A DNA stretch of 64,000 bases. Source: Massalongia carnosa. Its lineage: Eukaryota. Below the pieces are notes generated by a model. It worked only from the letters and a program-made list of their open reading frames with translations, was not told the DNA's origin and ran no database searches. How positions within the stretch are numbered: the first letter of the stretch is position 1; every line of letters begins with the position of its first letter. Positions 1 to 55,538 of the stretch are shown here, piece by piece. Location of the stretch: the NCBI GenBank assembly GCA_965645245.1, contig OZ287082.1, positions 310,001 through 374,000 on the forward strand, given 5' to 3'. A program made the translations under genes and the position numbers.

Positions 1-550
1 TTTTGTATCAAGATAAGATGAACGATAATGCAGTAAAATTCAGATTGAAATCTGCTTTTGAATTAAAGTAAGATGAATATTAATACAAAAAAAGTCAGAC
101 TGAAATCTGTCTCAGAATTAACGTCATCCTCTGAAATGTCTTAAAATCTTCGAATAAAAAGTCTGTCAAGTGTTTAAAATCTTTAAAAATTGTCTTTGAT
201 ACATGCAATCTGACAAAAGATCTTTTGAGAATTTTGCCTATGAGGCACGAAGGCCAGCAGGACTTTAAAGTTTTTCTATGGGGCACGTAGACCAGCAGGA
301 CTTTGTAGTTTGCCAATGAGACATAATAAATCCGAATCTTTACAACTATTTCTCATGATTATCAATATGAGAAGTCTTGAATAATGTTATGCATGAGATA
401 ATATTTCATGATATAGATACGATGTTTAATTTTGCATAAAGATAATATCATACTGTTATTGAAAGAGAATTAAAGTCCATTCTGCAGCACACGTTTCGCA
501 AACCTACTTTAATTCTCATCCCCAAATCGTCATATTCTTCAACTATCGTT

Positions 551-2800
551 TCACTCTAGCCACGCGTTCGCCGCCGATAGAATATCCCGCAACGTCCCGT
601 TATCATTATCCTCATCTCTCATAGCCCGAAAATCAAAACCACGACGACGACAATGACGATCGCGATTCAGAAACATCGCCCGCTCGAAATCGATCAGCAT
701 GAGGCGATCCAGTTCGCGGTTCCAGAGGACGTTGGGCGGGCGCAGGTCTGCTTGATTGATTCCTGCGAGTGTCACTTCGGCGACGGTGCGGCGGAGTTCT
801 GCTTGGAAGGATGGTCTTGTTTTGACCTTCTCGTAAGATTCGGCCACGTCTCCTCCCCAGGACATGAGGAGCATGTGCACGATTCGAACCTCGACGTCGA
901 GATGGTAGGGTTTGGCGAGGTCAATGTTGCCAAGATAGACGGGAACGGCCGCGCCTTGAAGATGTTCCAGATGGCGGTACACTCGCCCTTCATGTCGCAA
1001 GTTGGATACGAATGCGCGGATGGTGCCTTTGGCCACGAAGACATAGCCGTGCGAGGTCAATCGGATTCGGAACAATGCCCCTCGAGCACCTCGTTGGCCT
1101 AAGGGTTCGCAGTTCCGGTCAAGGGTACGGTCCAGCTGCCTGTTAACCAACGCCGTGAACTCTGGCAGGCTGATGGCGTGGCGATCGCTCTTTCTCCGAT
1201 GCTTGGACACGTTTGGACAGCGCTCGTCCAGCGTGGATTTCTGCCGGATCCCGAGCAAGCACTTCTGACTGCAGTACCGTTGTCTTTGGTGCTTGCCTTT
1301 ATCCTGATCCTTGCACAGAGACTGTCGCTCTTCCTCATTGGATCTATTTGACAGCTGCCGCACTTGTCCGTTTTTTGGATTCTTCATGGAGGACTCTGTC
1401 TCGGATAAATCCGACGATGATTCTTCAGGAGCAGGATCGATCTTAGGGGGCTCGCAGCGCTTCCTTCCTCGCAGCCGAAGCTTGATCGGAGTTCGATCGG
1501 AATTCTTCGAAATCTTGAGTCCACCGTTGGCCTTGAAGAGCGAACTAGGCGTTTCGACACGTTCTCGATCTTCGTCCGATTGACTCGAAAATCCGGCATT
1601 CTTTTCCCATCTTTCCAGCTCATCCATCATTTTGTTCCGCCAACCCTGGTTCCTCTCGGTGAACTGCTCCGACTGAAACGCCATGAGACACAGGCCAAGC
1701 ACCTGAGCAACAGCAGTGCGTTGCCAGTCGTAGCCATTCCTGTCCACGTCCTCGTTCGGGATGGCCAAGTGATAATACACCGTGGCTGGGTTTTTGGCTC
1801 GCACCCAGAGGAAGACGAGTGCAACTCCTGTCGTGATGTAACTATACTCCAACCCGTTCTCGATCATATCCGAGTAAGCCTGCGTGACCGCGCATCCTAT
1901 GCGCCAGTCCGCTTTATGATCTTTCTGTTCCTGCTCCGTCGCAAATATGGACACGTTGATGACATCGTTAGCTACGTTCATGGGCCGCAGACGTGTTTGC
2001 AGGTCTTGCACTGAAAGTTTGTGAGCCGCTTTGTATTCGGCCACCAACAGCAGTTTGTGACTTCCGGCCGTCTTGTAGATGCAATATTGATCCGGTCGAC
2101 CGCGTTTTCGCGCTTCTGAAGGATGATGCGTGTCAGCGTTGCCCTGAATTCTCGGATTCCGCAGGTCTTCCATCATATCATGCTTCAGCGCCTCTTCTCC
2201 TTGGTCATTGAGGGCATTCGCATGGTTATCAAATCCTAACCCATCGAGTTCTGTCATCTTGCTCAGTTGCTCCATAATCTTTGCCGTGGGCCCCTCCACT
2301 GCGAGTCGCTCGTAGGATGCGAGATCTGATTCGCTGGCATATTTGCGCTCACAGAGGTCGTCGCCAAGCTCTTGCAAATGCTGCACCGTGGCAAATAGCC
2401 GGAGATGAGGCGTGCAGTCCGAGTGAAAGCGTTTTCGCGCATCGATCAATAACGATGCTTGGGCTCCGTCGAAGCCCTCCCAAGGCCGGAGTTTGCTGGG
2501 ACATACCTTGCCGGTCACGCTGGTAAGTGCGCCCGTCGTGGTTATACTCTTGTTTACTTGAATGGAAAGTCGCTTCGAGATGTGCACGTGGCAGGCTTCC
2601 AGGTACTCTTCGAACGTTGTTGCCCGTAAGCGCTGCTCGGCTTCTTCCCTGCGCTGCTCGGCTTCTTTCCTGAGCTGCTCGGCTTCTTCCCTTCGCTGAT
2701 CGGCTTCTTCCCTTCGCTGATCGGCTTCTTCCCTGCGTCGCTCCAGCTCCCTCAAGCGTTCCTCGAGACGCTGAAAATCGGATTCTCTTCGTGCCGCCAT
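551..2800 (-). CDS. Spok-like (spore-killer family) protein, copy 1: coiled-coil, PD-(D/E)XK nuclease, Cys cluster, kinase-like domain; 749 aa, intronless
   Basis: N-terminal RREEA(D/E)Q heptads; RPDQY...AEYK (D237, E255, K257); YCSQKC-x13-CPNVSKH (C510, C514, C528); G-rich loop LGQRGARG, FVAKG, QADLRPPN (D685), IDFE (D704). Domain order matches Podospora SPOK proteins as I recall them. Confidence 0.85.
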   Translation of the reverse strand: MAARRESDFQRLEERLRELERRREEADQRREEADQRREEAEQLRKEAEQRREEAEQRLRATTFEEYLEACHVHISKRLSIQVNKSITTTGALTSVTGKVCPSKLRPWEGFDGAQASLLIDARKRFHSDCTPHLRLFATVQHLQELGDDLCERKYASESDLASYERLAVEGPTAKIMEQLSKMTELDGLGFDNHANALNDQGEEALKHDMMEDLRNPRIQGNADTHHPSEARKRGRPDQYCIYKTAGSHKLLLVAEYKAAHKLSVQDLQTRLRPMNVANDVINVSIFATEQEQKDHKADWRIGCAVTQAYSDMIENGLEYSYITTGVALVFLWVRAKNPATVYYHLAIPNEDVDRNGYDWQRTAVAQVLGLCLMAFQSEQFTERNQGWRNKMMDELERWEKNAGFSSQSDEDRERVETPSSLFKANGGLKISKNSDRTPIKLRLRGRKRCEPPKIDPAPEESSSDLSETESSMKNPKNGQVRQLSNRSNEEERQSLCKDQDKGKHQRQRYCSQKCLLGIRQKSTLDERCPNVSKHRRKSDRHAISLPEFTALVNRQLDRTLDRNCEPLGQRGARGALFRIRLTSHGYVFVAKGTIRAFVSNLRHEGRVYRHLEHLQGAAVPVYLGNIDLAKPYHLDVEVRIVHMLLMSWGGDVAESYEKVKTRPSFQAELRRTVAEVTLAGINQADLRPPNVLWNRELDRLMLIDFERAMFLNRDRHCRRRGFDFRAMRDEDNDNGTLRDILSAANAWLE
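2631..2735 (-). repeat. 5 x 21-bp tandem repeat encoding coiled-coil heptads
   Basis: Units cgctg(c/a)tcggcttcttccct(g/t) at 2631, 2652, 2673, 2694, 2715; copy 2 has only 2 units. Confidence 0.95.
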
Positions 2801-2821
2801 GACCGCTACGAGGAAATGTCA

Positions 2822-2959
2822 TGTAGTGCAATTAATATGTGTTTGTGTATGTCGAGTTGTTTCGATTGAGATTACCTTGACAACACTAGTCTTAAGCATG
2901 ATAAGATAAGATTAGATGACCTTTATCTCCGGAATTTCGCTTAGTCAGCCATGGCTACA
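2822..2959 (-). repeat. 138-bp LTR-like segment directly upstream of Spok-like copy 1
   Basis: TGTAG...CTACA inverted termini; the 109 bp nearest the gene are shared with 51911-52019; no TSD found. Confidence 0.4.
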
Positions 2960-3446
2960 GTGGTAGTATGGCGTCTAGAGAGACCAGATGGTCTGCACCT
3001 TCCAAGGCTGGCACCTTCCTATTTTAGTTAGCTTAAAACCAGGCCTTTTGGCCTGGGAAAAATATCATCTGCTTTCTACCTTCAGAACGCTTTTCGGGTC
3101 CATGGCTTTTCTGGCGACCACGGTGCGATGCTGAGAGAAGCCTTGATAGTAGACGTTATATAGAGAAGTACCAGCGCTAGTATCCAGTCCCAAGTTGTCC
3201 GAGTTCCACCCAGACAGAGTCCCATTCATCCCCCATATTCACCTCAATTCCTCCAACCTCCTCATCCTTACCTGAAGAGAAGTCAAGGTGGCACACCCAG
3301 ACTCACTATACGAAGAACTAGTCCGATACCTACCCCCACTCCCAGGAAACGCCCCATTCAGTCCACCTAGTCCTATCCACATCATGGCTAATATTCCAGA
3401 CAACTTTTGTGGCTGCTTCTCCGGAAAAGGTAGAAGATTTCCCGAG

Positions 3447-5357: not shown

Positions 5358-7668
5358 ATGCTTCGTGTGGGAGCCAGGGATCGTCCAGCGGCTGGCCTGG
5401 CTGTCCTTTCCCTTCTGGAATCCGCCACCTTGGACGTGATCATGAAGGCGTTTGTCAAAGGTTTGTTTGATGACGAGGTTCGGAAAGACACGATCCGTGG
5501 CCTCACCACCACAGGCCGGTCCCTCCGGGGGCTCTGCACGTTGGCTGAAGATGCCGACAGAGCCAAGAAGGAACTTCATAAGTTACTTGACGAGGAGCAC
5601 AAGACCCGGGAGCTAGATTTCTATCGAGACGTAGTTAGGCAGAATATGGCTCAGGAGAAAATAGAATCCCTCCTAGCTACATACCGGGCACAACCTGTTC
5701 CAAAGGAATGGGCTTTCGATAACCCATTCGAAAAGCCATCACTCACCCCACAAGTTGCCAAACCAGCACCTTTGGGAGAGACGTCCGGAAACTCCACGCA
5801 TCGGCCCAAGCCCAACAACCAGTCATATCACCCCGACCATACTCAGGAAATGGAGACAGACGTTCCCAATTCCATAGACCCCAATCCAAGGATCTTCCGA
5901 GTAGATCCACCTCACTCAATAAATACATCAATGGGTCCCGGACATGGGGGACTGGAGATGGACCTTTGTGCATCAAGTGTGGGGAAATTGGGCATATGTC
6001 TAGGGAATGTTCCGGCACTGTGCTCCCAGCATGGGAGCAATCATACCTCGAGAGCATAGTGTTTGGAGATAACCCACACTCGAACTTCTGTGCGGCTAGA
6101 TTCGGAAGTTATGATGGCAACACACAACCCTATGGAACATCGAGAAACTTCCAAGCCTCATCTTCCTCATTTGCCCCATCATCATCAAAGACTGGAGAAA
6201 GTCCCAGCTCGTGCTCCATCTCCTATGGCATAGCCGAGGATGTGAGTTATATCCTTCCTGTTAGATCATCATCAGTAGATGCTATGTATGGCGAGGGATC
6301 TGGGCCTAGCAAGAGGCCTCACATGGAAGATCCAAGGCCACGGACAATGGATGTTCCTGACAACACATCTGGAGTACCTGGTCCATCCTTTCATTCCGGA
6401 AACCGTACGAAGAAGAAGGGTCAAAAAATGGTGGGTAAGAAATCCGAACCCCAACCACTGGTTGGGATGTTCGATGATTCCATTGGGACATATGAGAAAC
6501 CCATCTCTGTTCGTCAAATGTTGAGGGAGAGTAAGGTAGATATGTCCTGGATGGACTGGATGGCTTGGTCCCCCGAAGCATGCAAGGAAATGAAGCGTCT
6601 GTGTACCAAGGTGACCAAAAGACGCATTCCAAAGGAAAAGCTGGGCAAGGATCCGGAACCACCAAGAGCACCCCCTTCAATCCAACTTTCCCGCCCCGAT
6701 CCACTCTGCCCTCTTTGCCTTCTATGTTTCCACTTCAAGCAACCCAGCCGATGTTCCATCCAACTGGACAATTCCAGAACTACAATCAGCCAGTCCAGTA
6801 CGCTCCAGCCAACCAAGTACATCTCCAAACATATCATACAGTACAACAACCAGTCCAGGCTACAGCAGTACCCCAGCAGGCCCCGCCAGCCCCCCCTATC
6901 CCAGTTCAGCCTCAGTACATCCCGATCGTCCAGCCCACAACCCAACAATTCCAGACTCAAGACATTGGGAATTCCGGGGAGGTGTTGAGCGTCGAAGCCG
7001 ATGGCCAAACCCAATTCCTTAAAACATTGAGAGGTGTGGAAAAAGCATTCAGGATAGAATGTACCATCACATCAGGGACTGGAATATCCATGAACCTAGG
7101 AAAGGCTATCACCCAGGCGGACCAAGGGTCAGAAATGGACGTCATCTCCGACTCCATACGAGCCCAGATAGGTGCTCCGAAAAAAGCACTATCTGACATT
7201 GGGTTTCATGGCCTCACTATGCGCACTGCAGACCATAGGGATACCCGCCTGGATTATTGGGCCGAGTTCACAATTACCACATCTGGGATCTCTCGGTTAA
7301 TAAGGTGCTTCATAGCTCCTCGGGTCACCATCGCTGGATCATCCAGGTCCGGACACTTCAATCTCTTACTAGGGCTTCCATGGCTATTCAGCGTAAATGC
7401 ACACATATCTATCAGAGAGTCAAGGATTACAATAGGAGACCCTGCAATGGGAGAAACCATGCGAGATATCATCGGCCCGGAAATGGTGTTCTGTACAGAA
7501 CACACTTTAATAATGTACCCATTAAAAGCATTTCCAGAGACAGAAAAATCACGTCCAGCCTCCGAAAAAGATTCCGAATCATCCGAGGATGATGAGGACT
7601 CCGACTCGGGGGAAGACCTCTCAGAATTCGAGGATGTAGTGCCAGTACGTGTTTTTGACAGGTCCTAA
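5358..7668 (+). pseudogene. gypsy A gag (zinc knuckle) and aspartic protease, frameshifted
   Basis: CIKCGEIGHMSREC knuckle; ADQGSEMDVIS...LLLGLPWL retropepsin-like motifs; spread over three frames. Confidence 0.8.
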
Positions 7669-7774
7669 GCATGACCTAAAACTGCCCGGATCCACCAATC
7701 GAAAAAAATTGGCTGAGGCTCGCGAGTAACATGATACCCATGTAATATCAGGGTCTGGATCCATAAATACATCT

Positions 7775-10700
7775 ATGCATGGGCCCTCCACCGTTTTCCC
7801 CAGACATGAACCTCTACCTATCCGCCCTGTCATCCGCCAACCCACGAGCAACTTCCCACCCATTCAGGAATTAGAAGAATGCATTGCTGGCCTTGGAGTC
7901 AAGCTAGGACCACTAATTCCATCTGAGAAAGAACGGCTTCAGGTGCTACGATTACTTTACCAATATCGTCACCTGAACTCTGTAGACCTTACGGATCTTC
8001 CATCTACCGATCTGATTATCTACCGAGTCAAGCTAGTTCCGGGGACGCGACCCCACTCCGTCGGACAGAAACGATGGCCACCCCACAAAGAGTGGTGGCT
8101 CAGAAAACTCGTTCAGGATGGAGTCGAAGGAGGAATATATGAAAGAACAGACCTAGTGGACGGACGGCTATCACCATGGAATGCCCGGGCTGTCCTGGTT
8201 GACAAAGTAGAAAATCCCACTATGAAAGATGAGCCTAGAATGACTTTCGATTATTCCAGAGTTGTGGAGGAATTGCCAGGAGCACACATGCAGCTAATGG
8301 CCGGATGTCATGATTATCTCTCAGACCCAAGACATGGATGCTTTACGACCGCTGACCTAAAACATGCATACCTGCTCGTTGTGGTTCATCCAGACGACCG
8401 GAAATATTTCTCCTTCACCATCCCGGGAATGGGCCAATTACAACCCACTCGGATGCAACAAGGGTCAATGACCGCCTCTTTTACAATGTCCGAATTGATG
8501 TGCAGAGCGTTCGGGCCCCTTCCAGAGGAACCATCATTGCTACAAGGAGAGTCCCCAGACTTTCCGCCACCTCTATCATTCGATCAGGATGACATTCTCG
8601 GTGGTCATTCCACATATCAAACCGCATTTACATTCCTAAAAGATCATTTTTTTCCCCGGGTAGAGTGGGCCAAATTACGGCTGTCATTCAAAAAGTTATA
8701 CTTATTCCAAGCGTCAGTAAAAGCCTTAGGCATGAGGCATGATGTCGGTGGACAGGTAAGAATCTTGGAGGAACGAACTGAGAAAATTATGAAATTTCCA
8801 ACTCCAAAGGACCAGACGGGAGTCCGGGCCTTCATTAGGACTATAGGCATCACACATCGCTGGGTGCCTAATTATTCAGAGCTTAGTAGACCATTGACTC
8901 GACTAACTGGAAAAGTGGAGTGGAGATGGGGAGACTCGGAGCAACTGGCCTTCGAAATTCTAAAAATCAAATGCACTATTCTCACAGCTATGTATGGCTA
9001 TGATCACACATTGCCTGCGCATTTCTACACGGACGCCTCAATGAACGGAGGGGGTTTGGTCATTACCCAGTTCCGAGATGAAGGTGGAAAGTCCATAGAA
9101 GTTCCCATCCTATACGATTCGATTAAATTCAGTACCACGGAGAAGAGGTACCCCATATATAAGAAGGAGCTATGTGCACTGGTGAAGTTTGTCATGAAAC
9201 ATGATTATTTCTGCATACATCCCATCAACATGACTGTGGTTCACACAGACCACAAGCCACTCGTGCACTTTCTGAAGTCTGATATCCACGAAGGTATCTA
9301 TGGACACTGGGCCGATAAACTGAGGAGGCTGAATATCGAAATCAAGTACATTCCGGGTAAGCGGAACAAGGTAGCTGACGGATTATCCAGGACACTCTTT
9401 CTCGAGGAGGATTGTTCTTCGGACCAAGCTGTGCAGGAAGCCATCAGCCGATTATCTGCTGATGGACCACAATGGATATGGAAGGATGGAAAAACTGGAT
9501 ATGAAGAGTTCCTAAAATCAATTAGTCCACAAGAACGTATGGAGGTCATAGACCACGGGTCCCTTGCGGGAGAGAATGTTTTTGCTTCTACACTAGCCTT
9601 GGAGGTCAGTGCCATGCCTGGATCAACCAGGCCTGATTCAACACTTTCATGGACAGATGCCTACTTATCCTCTGATTGGTTTGGGCGCGTGTATCGTATC
9701 TTGACAGATAAACAACCCCAACTAAACTCGGGGGAATTTTCACGGTCCATGGACTATCGAGTGGACCCACAGACCGGTATACTCTGGAAGTACCACAAGG
9801 GTACTTACCTTCCTTGCATTCCTGAGACAAAAGTTTTGCAAGTACTAAGAGTCGCACACGATGAGGGTGGCCATTGGGCCAAACAGGGGACTCTGGCAAA
9901 GATCCGAGGGTTCGTGTATTGGCCATCCCAATCCACCGATGTGGAAAGGTACATCAGGGGGTGCTTGGAATGTGCAAAGCATGGACCAGCCACAAAGTCC
10001 CAACTACTTCATCCAGTCCGTGTCCAGAGGCCATTTCAGCTGATAGGATTCGACTTCATCGGACCACTACCTACATCCAAGAAAGGATACCTATACATAT
10101 TCCACGTTCTGGAGTACTTCTCCCGTTTCTCCATCACTATTCCAAGTAAGACGGCAAATGCATCTGATGTGCTACCTGCCTTAGAGCAAATGTTCGTATT
10201 ATACGCTAGACCTCAGGCCATATATTGTGACCGGGGACAACACTTTGAAAACTCCGAGGTAAAGAACTTCCTTTCAGAAAAGGGCATATCTTACTTGTAC
10301 AGTCCGTCTGGCGCGTCCCAAAGTACTGGGATGGTAGAAATAGGGAATCGCTTGCTAGAGGACATCCTCCGGAAGACCCAAAGTGGGATATCCAAAGATT
10401 GGGAGGCCATCCTAGGGAGGTCCACGTACAATCTAAACGCTAGAGTGATTCATCATTCAGGGGCATCCCCAGCGTCCATCCTACTAGGAGTTGGTCCAGA
10501 CACTCCCACCATAAACCCCATTCTCCGATCGGTGCCCACACAATCAGTTTCCGCATGGATAGACCAGGTCCTGGATCCAGATCAACATCAGGCCTTGGTG
10601 CGAAAGTTCATTAGTTATCGAGCGCAGCTCCACGATACCATTCAATCAAGATCAAATCAGAGGAAGGATTTGGAGAGAGCCCGATTCAATCGTGGTATCA

Positions 10701-10996
10701 TCCAACACGAATTCGCATCAGGGGATCTGGTCATGTTATTCCAAAAAACATCAGGGAAATTACAGCCCAGATGGCGTGGTCCATTCTATGTAGAAGGCTT
10801 TGGTGGAAGTCATGGGACATCCTACACAATCCGTCAGATCAATGGGAGAAAAATAAAGGGAACCTTTCATGGCAATCATCTGAAAGAGTTTGTTGTTCGG
10901 ACTGGTCGCCTGGCAAATCCATCCGACATACCACTACCACCTTTTCAAACTATTCGTGAAAGAAGGAGAGCTTTGAGAGGTGAGACAACTAGATAA
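7775..10996 (+). CDS. gypsy A pol (RT, RNase H, integrase); RT motif reads DQDD
   Basis: PRMTFDY, TADLKHAY, FDQDD; TDAS...KKELCAL...TDHKPL RNase H; H...H...CLEC, FDFIGP, CDRGQHF integrase; WRGPF. Confidence 0.92.
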   Translation: MHGPSTVFPRHEPLPIRPVIRQPTSNFPPIQELEECIAGLGVKLGPLIPSEKERLQVLRLLYQYRHLNSVDLTDLPSTDLIIYRVKLVPGTRPHSVGQKRWPPHKEWWLRKLVQDGVEGGIYERTDLVDGRLSPWNARAVLVDKVENPTMKDEPRMTFDYSRVVEELPGAHMQLMAGCHDYLSDPRHGCFTTADLKHAYLLVVVHPDDRKYFSFTIPGMGQLQPTRMQQGSMTASFTMSELMCRAFGPLPEEPSLLQGESPDFPPPLSFDQDDILGGHSTYQTAFTFLKDHFFPRVEWAKLRLSFKKLYLFQASVKALGMRHDVGGQVRILEERTEKIMKFPTPKDQTGVRAFIRTIGITHRWVPNYSELSRPLTRLTGKVEWRWGDSEQLAFEILKIKCTILTAMYGYDHTLPAHFYTDASMNGGGLVITQFRDEGGKSIEVPILYDSIKFSTTEKRYPIYKKELCALVKFVMKHDYFCIHPINMTVVHTDHKPLVHFLKSDIHEGIYGHWADKLRRLNIEIKYIPGKRNKVADGLSRTLFLEEDCSSDQAVQEAISRLSADGPQWIWKDGKTGYEEFLKSISPQERMEVIDHGSLAGENVFASTLALEVSAMPGSTRPDSTLSWTDAYLSSDWFGRVYRILTDKQPQLNSGEFSRSMDYRVDPQTGILWKYHKGTYLPCIPETKVLQVLRVAHDEGGHWAKQGTLAKIRGFVYWPSQSTDVERYIRGCLECAKHGPATKSQLLHPVRVQRPFQLIGFDFIGPLPTSKKGYLYIFHVLEYFSRFSITIPSKTANASDVLPALEQMFVLYARPQAIYCDRGQHFENSEVKNFLSEKGISYLYSPSGASQSTGMVEIGNRLLEDILRKTQSGISKDWEAILGRSTYNLNARVIHHSGASPASILLGVGPDTPTINPILRSVPTQSVSAWIDQVLDPDQHQALVRKFISYRAQLHDTIQSRSNQRKDLERARFNRGIIQHEFASGDLVMLFQKTSGKLQPRWRGPFYVEGFGGSHGTSYTIRQINGRKIKGTFHGNHLKEFVVRTGRLANPSDIPLPPFQTIRERRRALRGETTR

Positions 10997-11042: not shown

Positions 11043-11614
11043 TGTAACGGAGTTCCCAATCAACGAGGACTATGAGTACTACGTCCAATGGCATGCCATG
11101 AGGCATGGCATTCCGCCTCCGGATCCTCTACAGGAGGATACATTCTCTATTCCTCCTGAAGAGTTCACCGAGTGGTGGGACCGGTATGACACCGTCGATG
11201 GAGAGAGGGAAATGACAAATGCAGAGGTGCGAACCTCTGAGAATCGCTGGAATTTTCACGTCTCGGTCCGGATGGACCAAACCCCCCGTCCTTGGGACAA
11301 AGGTCCCTTTCCGTTGACTTCCCCACCTCCACCCCCTCCGAACAATAGAAATCAGTTGTTATCACCACCTACGGATGCATAGGTAGTGCTTGTTAGTCTG
11401 CGAGGGCGCAGACGTCCTATTTGTTTTTGCCGTAGTAGTGGTAGTATGGCGTCTAGAGAGACCAGATGGTCTACACCTTCCAAGGCTGGCACCTTCCTAT
11501 TTTAGTTAGTTAGCTTAGACTAGTGCTGGTAAAACCAGGCCTTTTGGCCTGGGAAAAATATCATCTGCTTTCTACCTTCAGAACGCTTTTCGGGTCCATG
11601 GCTTTTCTGCTACA
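11043..11614 (+). repeat. 3' LTR of gypsy A
   Basis: TGTA...TACA after the PPT; 3' part repeated at 2959-3112. Confidence 0.8.
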
Positions 11615-15422: not shown

Positions 15423-18400
15423 CCATCGTTATGGAGCTGATACTGCACATTGCTAACATAGAAAAAAAAATTCAATTTCGGCTCATTTGCTGCGAATAAA
15501 TCTTATTCAAGAAATGGTACTTGCGGTACCCAAAAGTGTCATTGGGATATGTGAAATCTGATTCACTACCTCTAATTACATGACATTGATTTCAGAGTTC
15601 GAAGATAATGAAATATCTTTATTTGTAAGAAGGCATCTGGTGTTTTGATATTTGAAATAATCCGTTATTCTTGATATTGCATGTTCATTAATCTTGGAAT
15701 TACGTATAATATGAGCTTGAAATTACGTATAATTCAAGAGAGCGTAGCATAACTACTCAGAAGTAAATCGAGCTCAATCGAGAAAACGCTTTGCGTTCTT
15801 TAACACTTGAAAGAAAATTCGACACGAGAGAAGAACTAGAAACAGGAGTGATCATTTAACCTGAGCAATAGAGCTGAGTTAATGTCAGGGTCCTAGCCTG
15901 ACATAAGGCTGAGATGGAAGTGGGGATCACGGGAGCACACGAGGCTAGCGCGACACTCGGTGCAGATATTTCTAGCGAGTCGCGCACAATAATTCTTTTC
16001 TTCTTTTGTAGATAAATTTTAGTTTAATAGCGGTTGATTAGAATCGACGACAGCTTCCTTACACAATTTATCTACCTATTAGTATTCTTTCTTCCAGAAC
16101 TTCCAGTAGGGACGAGGTCCCATCCAGCAACTTTCTTCCAGATAGGGTGAAAACCCGTTCCAGTAACTTTCCAGATTGATCGTTTGTGCGAATCCAAACC
16201 GATCCAAATTCCAGAACTTCCAGAACGTTTCGAATCAGGGAATTCAGCTTTCCCATTTTCAGAATCCAGTCATGAGCTCAAAAACGCCAATGACGGCGAG
16301 AAAGGCCGTAGCCCCTCCCGCAGAGGCCCAGACCGGCCTAGCATTTAACACCCGCGCTCGTTCCGTCTCCCGTCATTCGTCTCGCTCGGATAGCAGCATG
16401 CCGGGAACGTTTGAAGACTCCGAATTACCTCAGAACGAACAGATTAAAGAAACAACGGAGGGGACGTGGGAAAAAAACCCAAGAGCAGGACGTGAAAAAG
16501 AAAAGGAGTTTTTTCAGAAGATCGATGTCTCCAATCATCCATATTAGAGAAGGATGCCGCGGAACATCCGTCCCACGTTGCAGCACACAATTTGAAGGAA
16601 TTGCAGAGCATCTTGCGAGACGAGAAAGAAGGACCCCGATGGTATGACTTCCTCGCGAGAGCGCTCGAATACGACAAGACCCTATTCAACAAATACATCT
16701 CCTTGCAGGGCGACCTGGAGAAGCTTGGCGAGGCCAAAAAGATCAACAGACGTTACAAACAAGTACATGAACGTCTCATCACGGAATAAGACGATGCCGA
16801 ACGAAGAGGCCCTTCTCGCGCAAGAAGAACTATCGCATAGAGATATCGAATTGGAGGCAATGACTATAGCAAAAGAGAGATTACAGAAAGAAATAGACTC
16901 CCTGGTCCGCCAGTTAGCGGAAACACGGGAAACACCACGTCATCAACGAGAAGATACCGTTACTACCCGAAGCACCAACGCCAACCCCCAGAATTGGCGA
17001 CCCCGTGGCATGAACCCTAGCAAGCCACTTAAAGGTGAGGACTCGGAGGAGTATAGCCCTTGGGCGTACTCCGTCCGCAATAAACTGAAGACAGACGCAC
17101 CCTTCTACGCCGATGAGAACGAAAAGGTCGGTTACGCACTGTCTCAAATGGAAGAGCCGATCTTCGGGGCTATGCACTCTTGGATAGTGGATATGGGAGA
17201 CTCACTATCGGCCGACGCTTTATTCGAAGAGATAGAGCACTATATGAGCATTCACCTCCAGAGCCGCGACGCCAAGAAAGAATTCCTCACCGTCACCATG
17301 AAAGGGGGCGAAAGCGTCAGCGAGTATTATCACCGAATCTTCAAGCTATGGCAGAAAGCCAAAACTCCCGTTGACGAGCGAATTGAGAAGTTCCTCGTGA
17401 CGTTAAAGCCTAGCATTTGCAACTCTCTTATGGGTTCAGTCTTTACTGATTTTCGCCCTTTACTTGACGAAGCACGAAGAATCGAAGACCGCCGCAAAGA
17501 TGTGGCGCACCACTTTCCTCGTCCCGATAAACCAGCCGCAACGAAGAATTCCAGCCAACGAAGCAATTCCTCCGGCGGACAATCCTCAACCCAGTCCTCC
17601 GGCGGAAAGTCCGCCTCATCCTCCATCAATCAAACCAGCTCCAAGAAATCTGATGATCGGCCGAATGCGAAGCTGATGCCAACGATAGTCAAACCGGCCG
17701 GTTGGGTAGGCACCTGGTATGATCCAGACCCAAACCCAAAGAAGCTGAAGGACGACGAGCGCGAGTCCCTCTCCCGTCAACGCCGATGCTGGGCATGCAG
17801 GGGATCAGGACATCGAGGAAACGATACCATTTGTCCTCAATACAGGGACAAGAACTTGAGCACCATGAGGACAGTAGAAACAGATTCGGGAGCGGAATCT
17901 GAGGCGGGAAAAGCCTAGTCCTTGATCGAAATCGCGATCAAGGGCTTACAAACAAGGAGGTTGTTAATGGGAACGGTGACACTGAAACGAAAATGGTGAG
18001 GGTCTCTACTTGTGCTGTCCGCGATACTGAAAAGAAAATCGAGGGCAAGCATTTAGTTTTTAAGACTAGCATAGCTGGAATTAATACCCGTTTACTTATC
18101 GATAATGGAAGTGAAGCTGAACTCATTGACGAATCCTTTGTGCGTAAACACAAATTGAACACCTTCAAATTGGATAAGAAGGTCAAACTTACTTTGGGAA
18201 ATGGAGAGGTAGTACAGCTCCTCTCGAAGGCCGCCTTGATCGACGTGAAAATCGGAGATCACGAAGAGCAAGTCTTATGTTATTTGGCAAAACTAGAAGC
18301 GTATGCAGTCATTTTAGGGGATGGATGGCTGCAAAACGCACAACCCAATGATCAATTGGAAAGAGAGAACGATGAAGTTCAACTCATCACATTGTCTTGA

Positions 18401-19611
18401 AAAAGGATATCTTACACGAGGGATAACTTGCACCGAATTCGCTGTGGGAAGCAGGGTTAAGAATAGGATCGAGCCTAAGGAAGACATCGAAGTTCTTCCA
18501 GTCAACGCAAAACACCTCTTTCGAATGGCCAGAAAGAAGGATCACGACGGCTATCTATGGATTCCTCGAGAAACAAAGAAGGCCTTCTGCGCAACTACCA
18601 CCGGAGCAGTGACATCAGGAGATTACCACAAGTTCATGAAGGGAAAACCGGAATACACCCGAGAGGAGTTGTTGAAGAGAGTCCCAGCATCTTATCACAG
18701 CGTAATAGATGTTTTCATGAAGCACAAGGCGGATGAACTACCTGAACACCGGAAGGAGGATCATCAGATAAATCTCGAAGCGGGAAAAGAAGCTCCGTAC
18801 GTAAGGAACTATAAACCCATGTTAGAACAAGAATTGGACGCGGTTAAGAAATACATCGACGAGCATCTGGGAAAAGGCTTCATCCGTCCAAGTTCGTCAA
18901 GCGCAGTAGCCCCCGTTCTTTTAGTTAGAAAACCAGGGGGTGGTTTAAGATTTTGCGTAGATTATAGAGCCTTGAACTCCATCACGATCAAGAACAGGTA
19001 CCCAATACCGTTGATAAATGAAACGTTGGGAAAACTATCACAAGCCAAGAAGTTCACAAAACTGGATGTGATGACCGCTTTCAATCGTATGAGAATGAAG
19101 GAAGGCTATGAGTGGCTCACAGCTTTCAATACTAGATATGGCCAGTTCGAATATTTGGTAATGCCGTTCGGTCTTTGCGACGCTCCAGGAACCTTTCAAA
19201 GCTTCATAAACGATACAGTCAGAGAATACTTAGACGTTTTCTGCACGGCGTATTTGGACGACGTCTTAATTTACAGCGAAAACGAAGAAGAGCATTCCGA
19301 ACAAGTGCTAAAAGTTCTAACTCGATTGAAGGAGAAAGGACTGCAAGTGGACATAGACAAATGCGAATTCTCTGTGACAGAAGTGAAATATCTTGGGTTG
19401 ATAGTTGCCACCGATGGAATGAAGATGGACTAGGAGAAAATCGAGTCGATTCTAAAATGGGAGACCCCAGGCTCCGTTAAAGATGTACCAGCATTCTTAG
19501 GCTTTGCAAATTTCAACCGAAGATTTATATCAAGGTTCTCGCAACGAACGAGATCGTTAACAGAGTTAACAAAGGGCGAGCAAATAACGACGAAGTCAGG
19601 AAAGAAACGAA

Positions 19612-20095
19612 TGAAACGGGGAGACCGTCTCCCAGCAGGCATTCACTACTGGAAGATGGGATCCACAGGGGCTACACAACGTGATGGTCACAATAGAGGT
19701 ACAAAATAGGTAGGGTCGGGTCAAAGGGTAGACTAAATGCTACCCTTTTGAAGTGCTTGATCATTGATCTATATAGGATAGGACAATCCACAACCTAAGC
19801 TCTTCTTCCGTACCTTGCCCATACTACCTGGTATTTTCGGACTCCGAAATACTTCGGACACCGAAAGACACGGGTAGATAAGACTAGGCAGGTGAGCTAG
19901 GGGAGGTGAGGCGAGGCGAGGGGATACTTCGTGTACTACGAAAACACCTCCATAATAAGTAAGTCCCCACACTATGCCTAACTGGGTTAGGCGGGACCTT
20001 ATTGTCTTGGTGGTTGTTTTGGCTGTACGTATCCCACATAGCCACATAGGCCAGTCTTACGTTCAACGAACGCATACTAGGCCTACCCTATTACA
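19612..20095 (-). mobile_element. Solo LTR inserted in gypsy B pol
   Basis: TG...CA termini; TSD ACGAA at 19607-11 and 20096-100; removing it restores the frame GKKRTRNNSLVW. Confidence 0.92.
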
Positions 20096-22094
20096 ACGAA
20101 CCAGAAACAATTCACTCGTTTGGTCTGAAGACTGTAAAAAAGCCTTCGAAGATTTAAAGAATGCGTTCACCACCGCTCCCGTCTTAGCACATTAAGATCC
20201 GGCCTTGAAAACATGGGTCGAGACTGACTCTTCAGATTTTGTTAGCGCCGGGGTACTCTCTCAAATGCACGACGGAATACTGAAACCGGTAGCCTAATTT
20301 CTCCAAGAAGATGACTCCTGCCGAGTGTAATTATATGATTTATGATAAGGAACTCCTCGCCATTGTGAAGAGCTTCGAAGTCTGGCGTCCCGAATGTCGC
20401 AAGTACTGCTCCTGATAAACCTATTAAAGTATACACCGATCACAAGAATCTAGAGCACTTCATGACCACGAAACAGCTGAATAGAAGGCAAGCTAGATGG
20501 GCCGAATTTCTTTCCGAATTTAATTTCAAGATAATGTATCGACCGGGAAAGCAAGGAGAGAAACCGGACACGCTGACCCGACGCTCTCAAGACCTTCCGA
20601 AGGGATTCGAGGATATAAGAAAGCAACATCAATTCCAAACGCTGCTGCAAGAGCATCAACTAGATGACGATATACGAAAAGCGCTAGCAGTCGTGTTCTG
20701 CGCGAACATAGCAGACGCCGACGACGACGACGACGATAAAGATCAAGATAAACAAAGCAATGCCACCGAGGAAGGCGCAACAGAATCAGAAGAACCCAAC
20801 GCAGAACATACACTAGCGACTGATGAAACCGAGAATTCAGTAACGAAGACTTTGGAGGAACTAATTGAAGAAGCTTACGAAAGAGACGAAACGGTCCAAG
20901 ACATAATAGCAGCAAAGAAAAAAGAACTGAGAAAACTCCCATTGAACCTCATAAAAAGAGGGATAAAGCTAGCAATGGGGGACCTCAAAATAGAGAACGA
21001 CAAGCTGTATGTCAAATAAAGACTATACGTACCAGATTACGAGCCATTGCAATTACATTTATTGCAAAAGCATCACGAACCATCATTACAGGCCCACCCA
21101 GGATGCAAAAGTTTGTATCAAACAATGAGAGAGAATTATTTCTGGTTCGAGATGGAGCACTGCAGGAGATACGCAGTTAAATGCCCTGTATGCCGAAGAT
21201 CAAAAGCATACAACGACAAGAAGTAAGGCCTGTTGAATCCTCTTCCCATCCCAAATAGAAAATGTGTGGACGTATCATTAGACTTCGTGGAATTCCTCCC
21301 AGAATGCCGAAGACGAAATAGAGTCTATCAGCACATATTAGTGATAGTAGATCGTTTAACGAAAAGACGATTATACGAACCACTAACCTCTCTCTCTACG
21401 AACGAACTGATGGACGCAATGTCCAGGAGATTGTTCTCCTCTTACGGATTCCCTATATCAACGGTCAACGACCGCGGTAGCCAACTAACCGCTCACCTAT
21501 GGAAAAGAGTTTGCGAAAGATACGGGGTGAAAATAAATTTCTCTTCTGCACATCATCCCGAGACGGACGGTCAAACCGAAAACGCCAATAAGGTAATGAA
21601 AAACTACCTTCAAGCATACGTCAGTTATACACAAGACAACTGGGACTATCTCTTAGACGCCGAGTTTGCCGCCAACAACCATGTAAACGTATCCACGGGA
21701 ATGACCCCATTCTTTGCAGATCATGGCTACCAGCCACGCTGTGGCATCGAACCACCAGGCACATACGAAGGCAAAGGAAAAGCAGAGATACTGCACGCTG
21801 ACAGGATCATAGATAGACAAGGAACTGGCTTCGAGATCAGTTAGCCGGGCTCAGGAAAAACAAACACGGCACGCAAACAAAGGCCGTCGACCCCATCCCG
21901 AATACAAGATCGGAGACATGGCTTATGTAAACGCAAAGCACTTTGCTTCCGAAAGACCCAGTAGATCATTAAGTTTCAAGAAAGCAGGCCTATGGAAGAT
22001 AATAAGGATCATCGACAATAGAGCATACGATTTAGAAATTCCGGATCAGCTAAAGAACGTCGGGCTTACCCCCATCTTCCGTCCATGGAAGCTA

Positions 22095-49500: not shown

Positions 49501-51716
49501 ACCGGAACAAGCAGTGCTACTTGGAAACGGACTCTTCGGACCATGTCAATGGAGGTGTTGTCCCAGATAGGAGACGACGGAGAACTTCACCCGGTAGCTT
49601 TCTTTTCAAAGAACATGAGCCCAGCGGAATGCAACTACGAAATCTATGACAAGGAACTGCTAGCAATCATTCGATGCTTTGAACAATGGAAGCCGGAACT
49701 CGAAAGCACGGAGTTACCAGTGAAAATCTTCACCGACCATCATAGCCTGGAGTATTTTATGACCACGAAGAAACTAACTAGACGGCAAGCCCGATGGGCG
49801 GAGTTCCTTTCGGAGCTCAATTTCGTCATCACCTACCGGCCTGGAAAGAAAAATGAAAAAGCAGACGCGCTAACCCGAAGGCCAAACGATAAGTCCCACG
49901 ACGATGATGATGAAAGGCAGCAGCACCAATTGCAGACGCTACTGCCCCCGGAAAGATTGGAACTTCAGCCCATTGAAGAAGCGACGGAACCAGAAGAAAC
50001 GACACGGAACGATGAATCCGACCCCGAACTCCCGACCCTCGACGAAAGAATCAAACAGGAAAACCTCGAAGACGAACTCTGCACCCGAATACGAAACGCG
50101 ATAAAGGAAGGAAACACTGATGACGACTCTCTACCGGACATAAAGAACTGCACCGAGAAGAACGGACTGCTATACAAACGAAAGGGCTTATGGGTGCCGG
50201 ACAAGAAAGAGACCATCCTAGAGGTTATTCGGCAAATTCACGACCAAGTGGCGGTAAGGCACCCTAGAATAGCCAGAACGGTAAATATAATCGGCCAGAA
50301 CTACTATTAGCCAGGCATGAACAAGGACATACGCCGCTATGTGCGAAATTGCCATGTGTGTCGACGAGCCAAGGCCCCAAGGGACAAGTATAATGGACTG
50401 CTGAAACCGCTACCCATACCAGAAAGACCATGGATGGACATCACCCTAGACTACGTTACCGGCCTCCCGAAGAGCAATGGAAATGACGCCATCCTGATGG
50501 TAGTAGACCGACTGTCCAAAGAGAGACACTACATCCCATGCACATGTGATGAAGAAGGAACTACGTCCGAGGCCACAGCCAAACTCCTAGTGGACAACGT
50601 ATGGCGCTATCATGGACTCCCAAGCAGCATAGTATCGGACCGGGGCCCCCAATTCACATCAACAGTTTGGAAAGCCTGGTGTAAAATCCTTGGAATCACT
50701 GCGAAATTGTCCACAGCCTATCATCCAGAAACAGATGGACAAAGTGAAATCGCGAATCAGGAAATGGAACGTCACCTTCGGAGTTTCGTGAACTATAATC
50801 AGGACGACTGGGCGGGCCTTCTTCCAATGGCGGAATTTGCCGCAAACAGCGCACCATCGGCCACCACCGGACTGTCACCATTCATGGCCACGAAAGGTTA
50901 AGAACCAAGGATGAGTTTCGACCCAATCGAACTGTCGTCAGAATCAACAAGGGAAAGGCTAGCCAATGGAAAAGCCCGAGCGATTACCGAGGACATGAAG
51001 AAAATCTGGGATTTCGTCAAACAAAATATGGGAAAGACCCAAGAAAGGCAAATAACAGCAGCTGACCGACACCGAAGAGACGTCTCATATGAAGTAGGCG
51101 ACATGGTATGGTTATCTACTCGAAATATCAAGACAGAACGAACGTCCAATAAATTGGACCATAAGATGATTGGACCCTATCGAGTCAAGAAGTTAGTAGG
51201 GTCATCCTGTCAACTAGAATTGCCACCATCAATGAAAATTCACGATGTCTTCCATACCAGCTTGCTTCGAAAGGCCTCAGACGACCCACTCCCAGGTCAG
51301 ATAAACGAGCCACCGCCACCCATAGTCGTAGAAGGTAGCGAAGAATGGGAACTTGATGACATTCTGGACTCACGAAAGCGGTACCGAAAGGTGCAATACA
51401 AGGTCAAATGGAAGGGAATTGACGAGGACCTGACATGGTATGATGCCGAAGGTTCCGAAAATGCAAAAGAAGTGATGGAGGACTTCCATCAACGAAACCC
51501 AAATAAACCGCGATGATCGCACTAACCGCATCGGTCACTTAATCTCATATTAAGCGGTGATAGGGACCGAAACTCCCGACGCGCTAAACCTTATCTTGGT
51601 TAGAAAGACTATCAAAAAGCGGAGATAACGCGGACATTATCGCGGTCAGGTCACTCGCGATTTAGAGCGGGGTAGTGTCACGGTTCTACTCGGCACTACT
51701 TCGGTAGACCGGAGCG
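46544..51716 (+). mobile_element. Ty3/gypsy chromovirus D (gag/PR deletion, stops, 3' LTR truncated)
   Basis: LTR 46544-46780 and the start of a second LTR at 51676; gag 46884-47840; YLDD RT; ETDSS RNase H; SDRGPQF integrase; EEWELDDILDSR...YKVKWKG chromodomain. Confidence 0.93.
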
Positions 51717-51865: not shown

Positions 51866-52040
51866 TACCCACACTCTCTTGTGTGTCATATTATTTCACA
51901 CGGAAGACGAGGAGATAAAAGGCATCAAATCTTATCTTATCATGCTTCAGGCTAGTGTTGTCAAGGTCATCTCAATCGAAACAACTCGAAATACACAAAC
52001 ACATATTCATTGCACTACATGACATTTCCTCGTAGCGGTC

Positions 52041-55000
52041 ATGGCGGCACGAAGAGAATCCGATTTTCAGCGTCTTGAGGAACGCTTGAGGGAGCTGGAG
52101 CGACGCAGGGAAGAAGCCGAGCAGCGCAGGGAAGAAGCCGAGCAGCGCTTACGGGCAACAACGTTCGACGAGTACCTGGAAGCCTGCCACGTGCACATTT
52201 CGAAACGACTTTCCATTCAAGTAAATAAGAGTATAACCACGACGGGCGCACTTACCAGCGTGACCGGCAAGGTATGTCCCAGCAAACTCCGGCCTTGGGA
52301 GGGCTTCAACGGAGCCCAAGCATCGTTGTTGATCGATGCGCGAAAACGCTTTCACTCGGACTGCACGCCTCATCTCCGGCGATTTGCCACGGTGCAGCAT
52401 TTGCAAGAGCTTGGCGCCGACCTCTGTGACCGCAAATATGCCAGCGAATCAGATCTCGCATCCTACGAGCGACTCGCAGTGGAGGGGCCCACGGCAAAGA
52501 TTATAGAGCAACTGAGCAAGATGACAGAACTCGATGGGTTAGGATTTGATAACCATGCGAATGCCCTCAATGACCAAGGAGAAGGGGCGCTGGAGCATGA
52601 TATGATGGAAGACCTGCAGAATCCGAGAATTCAGGGCAACGCTGACACGCGCCATCCTTTAGAAGCGCGAAAACGCGGTCGACCGGATCAATATTGCATC
52701 TACAAGACGGCCGGAAGTCACAAACTGCTGTTGGTGGCCGAATACAAAGCGGCTCACAAACTTTCAGTGCAAGACCTGCAAACACGTCTGCGGCCCATGA
52801 ACTTAGCTAACGATGTCATCAACGTGTCCATATTTGCGACGGAGCAGGAACAGAAAGATCATAATGCGGACTGGCGCATAGGATGCGCGATCACGCAGGC
52901 TTACTCGTATATGATCGAGAACGGGTTGGAGTACAGTTACATCACGACAGGAGTTGCACTCGTCTTCCTCTGGGTGCGAGCCAAAAACCCAGCCACAGTG
53001 TATTATGTTGGAATACTCGCTTAGCCCCATTAGTTCTAGCTCAGCCCTGCAGGCTGCCATGACTGCTATAAGCAGTCACCTCCGTAGTAATTTCAACATT
53101 ATGCCGTCAACTGTTTATTTAACAGGTTATGAGTCCCGGGTTTGTGCTTTGCGCCCCTCCGACGGCATCCTTCATGCATAGACTACGTACTATCATGTCG
53201 TATCAAGAAGATGATGAGGTGAAAGTTCAGACGTGGAAAGCGCGAAAACGAAGTGGAAACGACATCGAAAGGGATGAGAAACGAAGCGGAAACGAAGCGG
53301 AAACGTCATCGAAAGTGGTGTACGTACGAAACGTGCTGAGGAGGACATCTACAACGGGCGGTGCCTCGAAGACTTCACATCTTGCATTACTGGTCAGATC
53401 AGCAAGGGGAGATAAAAGCCCTGCGATCAGGCCACCAACGTCAATGGTCTGCGGGAAAATGTCTAACAGAGACATCGAGAAAAGCCCTGCTCAGGCCATC
53501 AATAAAACACGTCCATAGTACTCTTCCCATCCACCCATACACTCACAAAAGCTACGTCTCGAGAGATGGTTATGGGTTTAATGAGGCTACAAAGCAGGAC
53601 AACAAAAGACATAAGAAAGAACTACGTGCTTAGGGAAAATGGAGTCAGAGGGAGCTAGATTCGTTCCGCAAGGGGAGCGAATCGGACACAGCTGGATGAA
53701 TCACTTCGCAAGGGGAGTGATGAAAGCTGGATAGTTCAATTTTGGAGGCGAAAGGGGAGCCACGCTCGAAGGGGAGTGTTGGAATACTCGCTTAGCCCCA
53801 TTAGTTCTAGCTCAGCCCTGCAGGCTGCCATGACTGCTATAAGCAGTCACCTCCGTAGTAATTTCAACATTATGCCGTCAACTGTTTATTTAACATATTA
53901 TCACTTGGCCATCCCGAACGAGGACGTGGACAGGAATGGCTACGACTGGCAACGCACTGCTGTTGCTCAGGTGCTTGGCCTGTGTCTCATGGCGTTTCAG
54001 TCGGAGCAGTTCACCGAGAGGAACCAGGGATGGCGGAACAAAATGATGGATGAGCTGGAAAGATGGGAAAAGAATGCCGGATTTTCGAGTCAATCGGACG
54101 AAGATCGAGAACGTGTCGAAACGCCTAGTTCGCTCTTCAAGGCCAACGGTGGATTCAAGATTTCGAAGAATTCCGATCGAACTCCGATCAAGCTTCGGCT
54201 GCGAGGAAGGAAGCGCTGCGAGCCCCCTAAGATCGATCCTGCTCCTGAAGAATCATCGTCGGATTTATCCGAGACAGAGTCCTCCATGAAGAATCCAAAA
54301 AACGGACAAGTGCGGCAACTGTCAAATCGATCCAATGAGGAAGAGCGACAGTCTCTGTGCAAGGATCAGGATAAAGGGAAGCACCAAAGACAACGGTACT
54401 GCAGTCAGAAGTGCTTGCTCGGGATCCGGCAGAAATCCACGCTAGACGAGCGCTGTCCAAACGTGTCCAAGCATCGGAGAATGAGCGATCGCCACGCCAT
54501 CAGCCTGCCAGAGTTCACGGCGTTGGTTAACAGGCAGCTGGACCGTACCCTTGACCGGAACTGCGAACCCCTAGGCCAACGAGGTGCTCGAGGGGCATTG
54601 TTCCGAATCCGATTGACCTCGCACGGCTATGTCTTCGTGGCCAAAGGCACCATTCGCGCATTCGTATCCAACTTGCGACATGAAGGGCGAGTGTACCGCC
54701 ATCTGGAACATCTTCAAGGCACGGCCGTTCCCGTCTATCTTGGCAACATTGACCTCGCCAAACCCTACCATCTCGACGTCGAGGTCCGAATCGTGCACAT
54801 GCTCCTCATGTCCTGGGGAGGAGACGTGGCCGAATCATACGAGACGGTCAAAACAAGACCATCCTTCCAAGCAGAACTCCGCCGCACTGTCGCCGAAGTG
54901 ACACTCGCAGGAATCAATCAAGCAGACCTGCGCCCGCCCAACGTCATCTGGAACCGCGAACTGGATCGCCTCATGCTGATCGATTTCGAGCGGGCGATGT

Positions 55001-55122
55001 TTCTGAATCGCGATCGTCGTTGTCCTCGTCGTGGTTTTGATTTTCGGGCTATGATAGATGAGGATAATGATAACGGGACGTTGCGGGATATTCTATCACC
55101 GGCGAACGCGCGGCTAGAGTGA
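52041..55122 (+). pseudogene. Spok-like copy 2, interrupted by a TRIM at 53006-53895
   Basis: Near-identical to copy 1; deleting the insertion plus one TATTA restores ...TVYYHLAIP... with no other stop. Confidence 0.9.
53006..53895 (+). mobile_element. 890-bp non-autonomous copia-type LTR element (TRIM)
   Basis: Identical 119-bp LTRs 53006-53124 and 53777-53895; TSD TATTA; PBS GGTTATGAG(T)CCC; PPT GAAGGGGAG. Confidence 0.95.
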
Positions 55123-55538
55123 AATGGTAGTTGAAGAATATGATGGGTTGGGGATGGGAATTAAAATAGGTTTGCGGAAACGTGAGCTGCGGAATTGACT
55201 TTAATTCTCTTTCAATAACAGTATGATATTATCTTTATGCAAAATTAAACATCGTGTTCTATATCACGAAATATTATCTCATGCATAACATTATTCAAGA
55301 CTTCTCATATCGATAATCATGAGAGATAGTTTTATAGATTCGGATTTATTATATTGGTTTATAAAGTATAACATAAATTAAATCAAAAAAGCACTTGATA
55401 TCTCATTAACACTATTTCTACTTCTCATTTCATTTAAATATTAAATAATTCATTTACACGTAAATTACGAAAACTAAGGAAGAATTATATCGCGATAAAA
55501 GTTTACGTCGCGCAACGGGTCTGGTTGGGTTAGGTTTT

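Follow-up and report, generated by a model that had tools for sequence, protein, structure and literature searches.

The DNA analyzed here, hereafter the window, is a stretch of 64,000 nucleotides from Massalongia carnosa (assembly GCA_965645245.1, contig OZ287082.1, positions 310,001 to 374,000), and it contains at positions 551..2800, on the minus strand, a gene that we call copy A and that resembles the Spok spore-killer genes of Podospora. The coding sequence (CDS) starts with an ATG, which is preceded by an in-frame stop six codons 5′, and is intact over 749 codons plus the stop (protein P0001); by our own arithmetic, a stop-free run of this length has a chance probability of ~2e-16. In terms of domain order, the protein follows SPOK3, with a coiled coil, a domain of unknown kind, a PD-(D/E)XK nuclease, a disordered linker, a Cys/His cluster, and a kinase. 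The coiled coil is encoded by a 21-bp tandem repeat of 5.1 copies (2630..2737, this and all following features of copy A on the minus strand), each unit of which codes for a heptad, and residues 2–58 are modeled by AlphaFold2 as one helix. Domain 1 (residues 59–200; 2201..2626) is predicted to be folded, with a predicted local distance difference test score (pLDDT) mostly >90, and packs in the model against the nuclease domain. For the corresponding domain of SPOK3, Vogan et al. 2019 found no function (PMC6660238).

The nuclease domain (residues 230–415; 1556..2113), the equivalent of which is the killing domain in SPOK3, contains the catalytic core P236-D237 ... E255-Y256-K257 (2030..2095) and a QxxxY motif (1868..1882) that reads QAYSD, such that Q307 is kept and the tyrosine is replaced by D311. 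Following the linker (residues 416–504; 1289..1555; pLDDT <50), the Cys/His cluster (1178..1273) has the spacing C510-x3-C514-x13-C528-x5-H534 and then x6 to H541; this second histidine is one residue closer than in the published C-x3-C-x13-C-x5-H-x7-H arrangement (PMC6660238). The kinase domain (residues 546–715; 656..1165), which in SPOK2 and SPOK3 is the resistance domain, carries K591, E604, D685, N690, and D704, with DLRPPN at 685–690 and DFE at 704–706. A preliminary description of this DNA had listed the 749-residue open frame, the heptad coiled coil, the PD...EYK, Cys/His, DLRxxN, and DFE motifs, and the positions K257, C510/C514/C528, and D685, all of which are correct. It had also given K240, C493/C497/C511, and D667 as the SPOK3 residues that were tested, and these are the residues named in PMC6660238; the offsets that it gave, +17 for the lysine and the three cysteines and +18 for the aspartate, are correct as arithmetic on the residue numbers in that paper.

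Copy A aligns with a Podospora protein over nearly its whole length. A single phmmer comparison with P0217 (VBB79757.1, annotated “Putative spok spore killer [Podospora comata]”) yields one alignment, query 13–713 to target 50–750, with 256.9 bits and E = 2e-80, which supplies the full-length match to SPOK proteins on which the preliminary reading depended. P0217 was found through a 90% cluster of Podospora proteins, and the Podospora proteins themselves were retrieved by a second search that was seeded with a Fusarium homologue. BLASTP of copy A against P0212 gives an alignment restricted to residues 47–399, in the N-terminal half. A word-indexed protein search returned 200 proteins with E ≤ 0.001 among 8000 candidates scored; among the matches listed, 120 of 120 are fungal or unnamed and the same number carry a precomputed PF27653 assignment, a family named SPOK2_N in Atlas (clusters of 52, 422, and 2593 members). 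The same precomputed assignment is attached to P0002, which represents the 90% cluster to which P0001 belongs. Our Pfam scan of copy A, the models of which exclude PF27653, gave only sub-threshold matches to DUF7946 (E = 0.07) and APH (E = 0.45). When 1.84 billion representatives were searched exhaustively with phmmer, 715 matches reached E ≤ 1e-30; relaxing the threshold to E ≤ 1e-10 raised the count to 1630, and relaxing it to E ≤ 0.001 raised it to 2522.

The functionally important columns are nearly invariant in an alignment of 201 stored proteins of 650–930 residues (out of 212). In the nuclease domain, the residue of copy A is shared by 197 proteins at D237, 195 at E255, 200 at K257, and 199 at Q307; in the Cys/His cluster, by 200 at C510, 200 at C514, 201 at C528, 200 at H534, and 197 at H541; and in the kinase, by 201 at K591, 200 at D685, 201 at N690, and 200 at D704. 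Position 683, two residues before the kinase catalytic aspartate, is glutamine in copy A, as in 16 of the 201, and histidine in 179. Identity to the Podospora proteins is ~30% over aligned columns, and the residues whose mutation abolishes killing by SPOK3 (the lysine of ExK) or resistance (the three cysteines and the kinase aspartate) are conserved. On its sequence, copy A is a genuine, intact, and distant member of the Spok family; the alignment and the conserved columns support the preliminary view of a SPOK homologue with the same domain order and the same tested catalytic residues. That Spok homologues occur widely in Ascomycota was already established, and their family is large (Pfam SPOK2_N); the analysis of Vogan et al. 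2019 included 282 of them (PMC6660238). Literature searches of limited coverage found no paper on Spok genes in lichens or Lecanoromycetes, and the Tangerine Starship preprint contains no occurrence of Spok.

The AlphaFold2 model of full-length copy A, built from 109 aligned sequences, has a mean pLDDT of 81.5 and a predicted template modeling score of 0.78. It places a helix at residues 2–58, folded blocks at ~60–415 and 505–715, and disorder at 416–504, a predicted layout that matches the one described for SPOK3 (PMC6660238). With the whole model as query, Foldseek ranks the kinase Rio2 (1zar) first (E = 2e-6), and the top-50 rows listed are kinases. A profile of the family likewise matches PDB kinases around the catalytic loop, Cdc7 among them at E = 5e-8, and a single-sequence search of PDB sequences has its best match, at E = 0.2, in p38 kinase.

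For the nuclease domain, a separate model of residues 59–415 (pLDDT 87.5) was compared with known structures by VIA-align, which does not depend on Foldseek. The matches include BpuSI (Z = 10.7, root-mean-square deviation (rmsd) 3.6 Å over 150 aligned residues), a fragment of Vibrio vulnificus HsdR, 3h1t (Z = 8.0, rmsd 4.1 Å over 127 aligned residues), DrdV (Z = 7.8), SgrAI (Z = 6.8), and EcoR124I HsdR (Z = 6.5); with this method, a Z under about 8 may mean no more than a common arrangement. The chains with Z ≥ 5 number 17: two are mitoribosomal proteins, and the other 15 are restriction enzymes or proteins with a nuclease fold, classed by title for most and by background for DrdV, SgrAI, TT1808, McrBC, BbvCI, and SduA. 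The nuclease fold is predicted from three things in combination: the top matches, the uniform make-up of the list, and the conservation of the D...ExK residues. 3h1t was also the best HHpred match for SPOK3 in Vogan et al. (PMC6660238). Both enzymatic folds named in the preliminary description are thus borne out at the level of models, the nuclease by VIA-align and the kinase by Foldseek and the family profile.

The preliminary description had named a single gene. Self-comparison of the window by tblastn and blastn, together with further members of the protein cluster, shows that the Spok-family gene is present in at least four copies, two of them in the window. A unit composed of the copy A gene, ~130 bp upstream, and ~230 bp downstream (323..2930, minus strand) recurs in inverted orientation as copy B (51911..55352, plus strand), so that positions 323–2930 align with 55352–51911 as the inverted repeats I1–I3 at 95–98% identity. 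The copy B CDS (52041–55122) is interrupted after its own codon V320, which is V341 in copy A numbering, and aligns with copy A as two segments, 52041–53006 (residues 1–343) and 53875–55119 (residues 338–749). Apart from the insertion it has no stop or frameshift, and its two open halves correspond to P0213 and P0215 in the protein database. The inserted DNA is an 890-bp miniature long terminal repeat (LTR) retroelement (53006..53895, plus strand) with LTRs that are identical at 119 of 119 positions and bounded by TG...CA, a purine tract ahead of the 3′ LTR, and a 5-bp target duplication, TATTA, at 53001–53005 and 53896–53900; the insertion is recent. The ends of the duplicated 2.6-kb unit, inspected by eye on the alignment, show no terminal inverted repeats or target duplications, and we reject the idea that the unit is itself mobile.

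The 90% cluster of P0001 comprises P0002 (728 residues) and three fragments of 327, 211, and 430 residues, each on a contig of 2,023,447 bp, which we take to be one contig. P0002, which is 94% identical to copy A by BLASTP and 97% in the multiple alignment, represents another intact copy outside the window. The 211-residue fragment, P0214, also from outside the window, derives from a fourth copy, ends before the kinase catalytic aspartate, and has changes at conserved glycine and histidine positions. The heptad array of copy A is longer by three repeats (63 bp) than the arrays of copy B and P0002. This multi-copy pattern with a variable number of heptads is as described for clade II Spoks, in which the number of coiled-coil repeats varies and several copies occur per genome (section 19, PMC6660238).

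Of the words sampled from the 2.6-kb unit, 57–63% are present in each of five public sequencing runs from three studies. One of these matching runs is labeled a lichen metagenome and the others come from organisms coded A and B; near-identical DNA is present in a lichen metagenome. All four of the runs in which contigs were examined contain a Spok-family gene, and the unique flank of copy A (1–244) has exact matches in both organism-B runs examined (X3 and X4). At window position 1870, the form that encodes tyrosine at residue 311 is the sole form in X1, X2, and X4 and accounts for about half of the depth in X3. Run X2 shows a 63-bp deletion in the repeat (skip 2657–2721). Run X3 contains a 1-nt deletion variant at window position 1601 (924/3806 of the contig depth), which points to one more paralogue, with a frameshift, in organism B. 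One matching run may underlie the assembly, and the runs are therefore not read as independent confirmation. Runs X6–X9, from the same studies as the matching runs, have next to no sampled words and have no bearing on absence or polymorphism; no RNA run is among the matching runs listed for the 2.6-kb unit.

A tree of 60 rows chosen from 219 stored proteins (closest hits plus named representatives) was computed by a quick search with support from the Shimodaira–Hasegawa-like approximate likelihood ratio test only. P0001–P0004, the window clade, have as their sister group (support 88) a set composed of unnamed proteins from ENA, JGI, and Logan and of one protein of Icmadophila ericetorum, a lichen-forming fungus. 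In the same tree, the Podospora proteins lie at a distance, in a tight clade with proteins mainly of Fusarium, Colletotrichum, and Verticillium. Elsewhere in the tree, proteins of Claviceps and Epichloe are nested among those of Aspergillus and Penicillium, and an Arachnomyces protein stands beside Sordariomycete proteins. Disagreement between Spok gene trees and taxonomy has been reported earlier (PMC6660238), and such conflicts fit the horizontal transfer that has been proposed for the family.

In terms of surroundings, the window is a transposon nest, as the preliminary description had stated, with domains of Gypsy, Copia, pogo-like DDE_1, and long interspersed nuclear element (LINE) types. 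The accompanying claim that nearly all of these elements are decayed was overstated, as a Copia frame of 1621 residues and a Gypsy pol frame of 1088 residues are uninterrupted. The Copia-type element (37210–43083), with 221-nt LTRs that are 99% identical and an uninterrupted frame with gag-pre-integrase, rve, and RVT_2 domains, looks young and is possibly active. The three Gypsy-type elements are in different states: the first (5723–10996) holds the open pol frame, the second lies at 16596–21844, and the third (46842–51516) is broken into consecutive frames, with SH3 and chromo domains at its end. A LINE-like element with endonuclease and reverse transcriptase (57230–62235, plus strand) and a pogo-like DDE_1 transposase frame of 471 residues (22663–24078, minus strand) complete the set. 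A repeat of ~155–170 bp occurs at 2959–3113 and 11437–11609 with 89% identity; it starts 29 bp beyond the upstream end of the copy A unit, and many differing loose ends in the runs begin at 2959, indicative of a dispersed repeat boundary. The Podospora Spok block is cargo of the Starship Enterprise, and the captain of a Starship is a tyrosine recombinase (domain name DUF3435) located at one end of the large element. No Starship was found within the 64 kb of the window, where 0 of 37 scanned frames matched tyrosine-recombinase families, a result that leaves room for a Starship beyond the window.

The explanation that best accounts for these observations, and that we hold with moderate confidence, is that copy A is an intact Spok-family paralogue that would combine a toxin nuclease and a Cys/kinase antidote in one polypeptide. 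By extension from Podospora, the nuclease domain would damage DNA, the half composed of the Cys cluster and the kinase would neutralize the nuclease in nuclei that still express the gene, and meiotic products or cells that lose the gene would therefore die. The experimental basis is that SPOK3 K240A abolishes killing, that SPOK3 D667A and the cysteine mutants are toxic unless wild type is present, and that nuclease-domain mutants of SPOK3 and Spok2 lose killing and keep resistance (PMC6660238); SPOK1, in turn, kills by targeting DNA (PMC9972908).

Several observations weigh against this explanation. The experimentally characterized members of the family all belong to a distant clade and are ~30% identical to copy A, which in our tree occupies a different deep lineage from the Podospora clade. 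The ratio of nonsynonymous to synonymous divergence (dN/dS) between copies A and B, 0.39, signals only moderate constraint, and one of the two compared copies is disrupted. Foldseek on the nuclease-domain model gave no PDB match at E ≤ 0.001, and Z ≥ 8 is reached in only two VIA-align matches. Finally, D311 lies in the nuclease domain, the killing domain, and may argue against full killing activity; the killing strength of copy A is uncertain because the QxxxY tyrosine is replaced at this position.

The column of the QxxxY tyrosine holds Tyr in 179 of the 201 aligned proteins, Val in 18, Ser in two, Ala in one, and Asp in copy A only. At codon 311, copy A has GAT where copy B has TAT, and tyrosine is also present in P0002 and in P0003, a relative of 68% identity; to judge from these sequences, D311 is derived in copy A, because P0002, copy B, and P0003 all carry Tyr. 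The three close paralogues vary among themselves at 27 positions, of which 18 are specific to copy A, two to P0002, and seven to copy B, and position 311 is the sole one of the 18 that falls in a highly conserved column. Other departures from conserved columns, among them A259, R270, S511, and Q683, are common to P0002, and most are shared by P0003 as well.

This unique and derived change, set beside a resistance domain in which every residue is intact, raises the tentative possibility that copy A is an allele weakened in killing that retains its antidote, with a kinase half that protects, a nuclease crippled by Y311D, and a role as resistance factor or suppressor against the Tyr-bearing paralogues. 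If the change has this effect, killing by copy A may be weakened and protection kept, in parallel with Spok2 of Podospora strain A or with SPOK3 K240A. Different Spoks of Podospora are not known to cross-protect, and if the same applies in this fungus, the resistance conferred by a given copy might extend no further than that copy's own killing. The behavior of the Spok2 and SPOK3 nuclease-domain mutants noted above is in line with this possibility; in SPOK3, the QxxxY motif is at 294–298 and the PD-(D/E)XK span at 219–240 (PMC6660238). In EcoR124I HsdR, Y183A slows first-strand cleavage more than twofold and leaves mostly nicked DNA, and the double mutant Q179A,Y183A shows no cleavage (PMC2475608, section 14). 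The same data also count on the other side, since Y183A lowers cleavage and does not abolish it (PMC2475608). Moreover, the Val, Ser, and Ala residues found at the column indicate that the tyrosine is dispensable in the family and that its absence is compatible with membership, and it is because 21 other family members are without Tyr that we advance the weakened killing of copy A as a hypothesis.

A second alternative, which we consider doubtful, is that copy A belongs to the Spok family and is no meiotic driver, acting in its place as a vegetative toxin–antidote, e.g. an addiction module that penalizes loss of a repeat-rich region, or in some other cellular role. The position of the locus within a transposon nest and a host that is probably a lichen-forming fungus are in keeping with such a role. 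A 2026 preprint (10.64898/2026.10.04.756499) appears to report that, in a fungal pathogen, a spok gene on a Starship limits the loss of a chromosome that is dispensable, and in Podospora, expression of Spok1 and Spok2 was seen in vegetative cells, in which toxicity was reproduced (PMC6660238). Against this, no Starship captain was matched among the frames of the window, with the reservation already given for its 64 kb, and the sequence offers nothing to tell vegetative from meiotic action.

The divergence between copies A and B speaks to whether the gene is maintained at all. The two differ at 44 of 2187 aligned CDS positions, with 19 synonymous changes over 503 sites and 25 nonsynonymous changes over 1678 sites (dS = 0.039, dN = 0.015; Fisher p = 0.003), and at 27 of 363 positions in the flanks; this pattern shows purifying selection. 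The nonsynonymous changes cluster in disordered parts, five of them in residues 201–229 and five in the tail, 716–749, and the 211 codons of the Cys and kinase block have four nonsynonymous and six synonymous changes. Over the whole 2.6-kb unit, 40 transitions and 31 transversions separate the copies. Repeat-induced point mutation (RIP) was considered as the cause of the divergence and is ruled out by this mixture together with RIP indices that are low across most of the window; for the same reasons, RIP is not acting on the 2.6-kb duplicates, and in the source genome it seems to be weak or absent. That copy A is a neutral and functionless relic, a recent duplicate that is open only for lack of time, is suggested by the decay of its sisters (copy B split by the retroelement and P0214 a 211-residue fragment), by the deletion variant at 1601 in run X3, and by the greatest number of lineage-specific amino acid changes being in copy A (18, versus two in P0002 and seven in copy B), but this is improbable given a dN/dS significantly below 1, the gathering of replacements in disordered segments with few in the Cys/kinase block, and a family signature that is kept over ~700 residues and back to relatives of 30% identity.

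Returning to copy A as a putative toxin–antidote paralogue, the closest known parallels are Podospora SPOK1–4. Copy A shares with these proteins the domain order, the disordered linkers, the catalytic Asp/Glu/Lys of the nuclease, the Cys cluster, the Asp/Asn/Asp of the kinase, and an N-terminal coiled coil made from a repeat of variable copy number, and the window family resembles them in that a genome contains several nearly identical copies in repeat-rich surroundings. It differs in its ~30% identity and distant clade, in QxxxD for QxxxY, and in Gln683, which is mostly His elsewhere. The Fusarium homologues (Fs_82228 of F. solani and the copies of F. oxysporum and F. vanettenii) are of the same family as copy A, and Fusarium Spoks are often multi-copy and located in repeat-rich or accessory regions (section 19, PMC6660238). 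Our Fusarium comparison rests on P0091 and P0137, with Fs_82228 itself outside it; both proteins align full length with copy A and group with the Podospora proteins in the 60-row tree, whereas copy A is in the other deep lineage.

The nucleases of HsdR (V. vulnificus and EcoR124I) and BpuSI share with copy A the PD-(D/E)XK fold (Z = 8.0, 6.5, and 10.7, respectively), and a RecB-type Gln located four residues ahead of an aromatic position on the helix that follows motif III. Copy A in turn is only 13–16% identical to them, lacks a partner helicase or methylase, carries its nuclease in fusion with a kinase, and has the QxxxY tyrosine replaced. The wtf drivers of Schizosaccharomyces pombe resemble Spok in that poison and antidote come from one gene and in being multi-copy, although the proteins are unrelated. 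The wtf proteins are membrane proteins made from two transcripts, whereas the Spok activities are two domains of one enzyme-like protein.

Copy A extends a large known family by one member and leaves the existing picture of that family unchanged. Among the single-gene meiotic drivers of fungi, the Spok genes are the best understood, and the experiments cover Podospora and a few Fusarium proteins, which is one part of the tree; a deep-branching lineage from a probable lichen-forming fungus retains every residue of experimental importance and has the same dynamics of copy number and coiled-coil repeats as the Podospora and Fusarium genes. Turnover is visible in the window family: one copy is intact, one was freshly split by a retroelement, and in one the killing domain bears a unique change. 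The boldest interpretation, which we judge quite unlikely, is that the various paralogues together operate as a multi-locus spore killer in a lichen-forming fungus, with copy A as a natural suppressor that is weakened in killing and confers resistance only, by virtue of Y311D; if true, it would mean that a suppressor was born within a drive family, in fungi from which no meiotic drive is known to have been reported. The natural pair of paralogues with tyrosine and aspartate at this position provides a ready test of the contribution of QxxxY to Spok toxicity.

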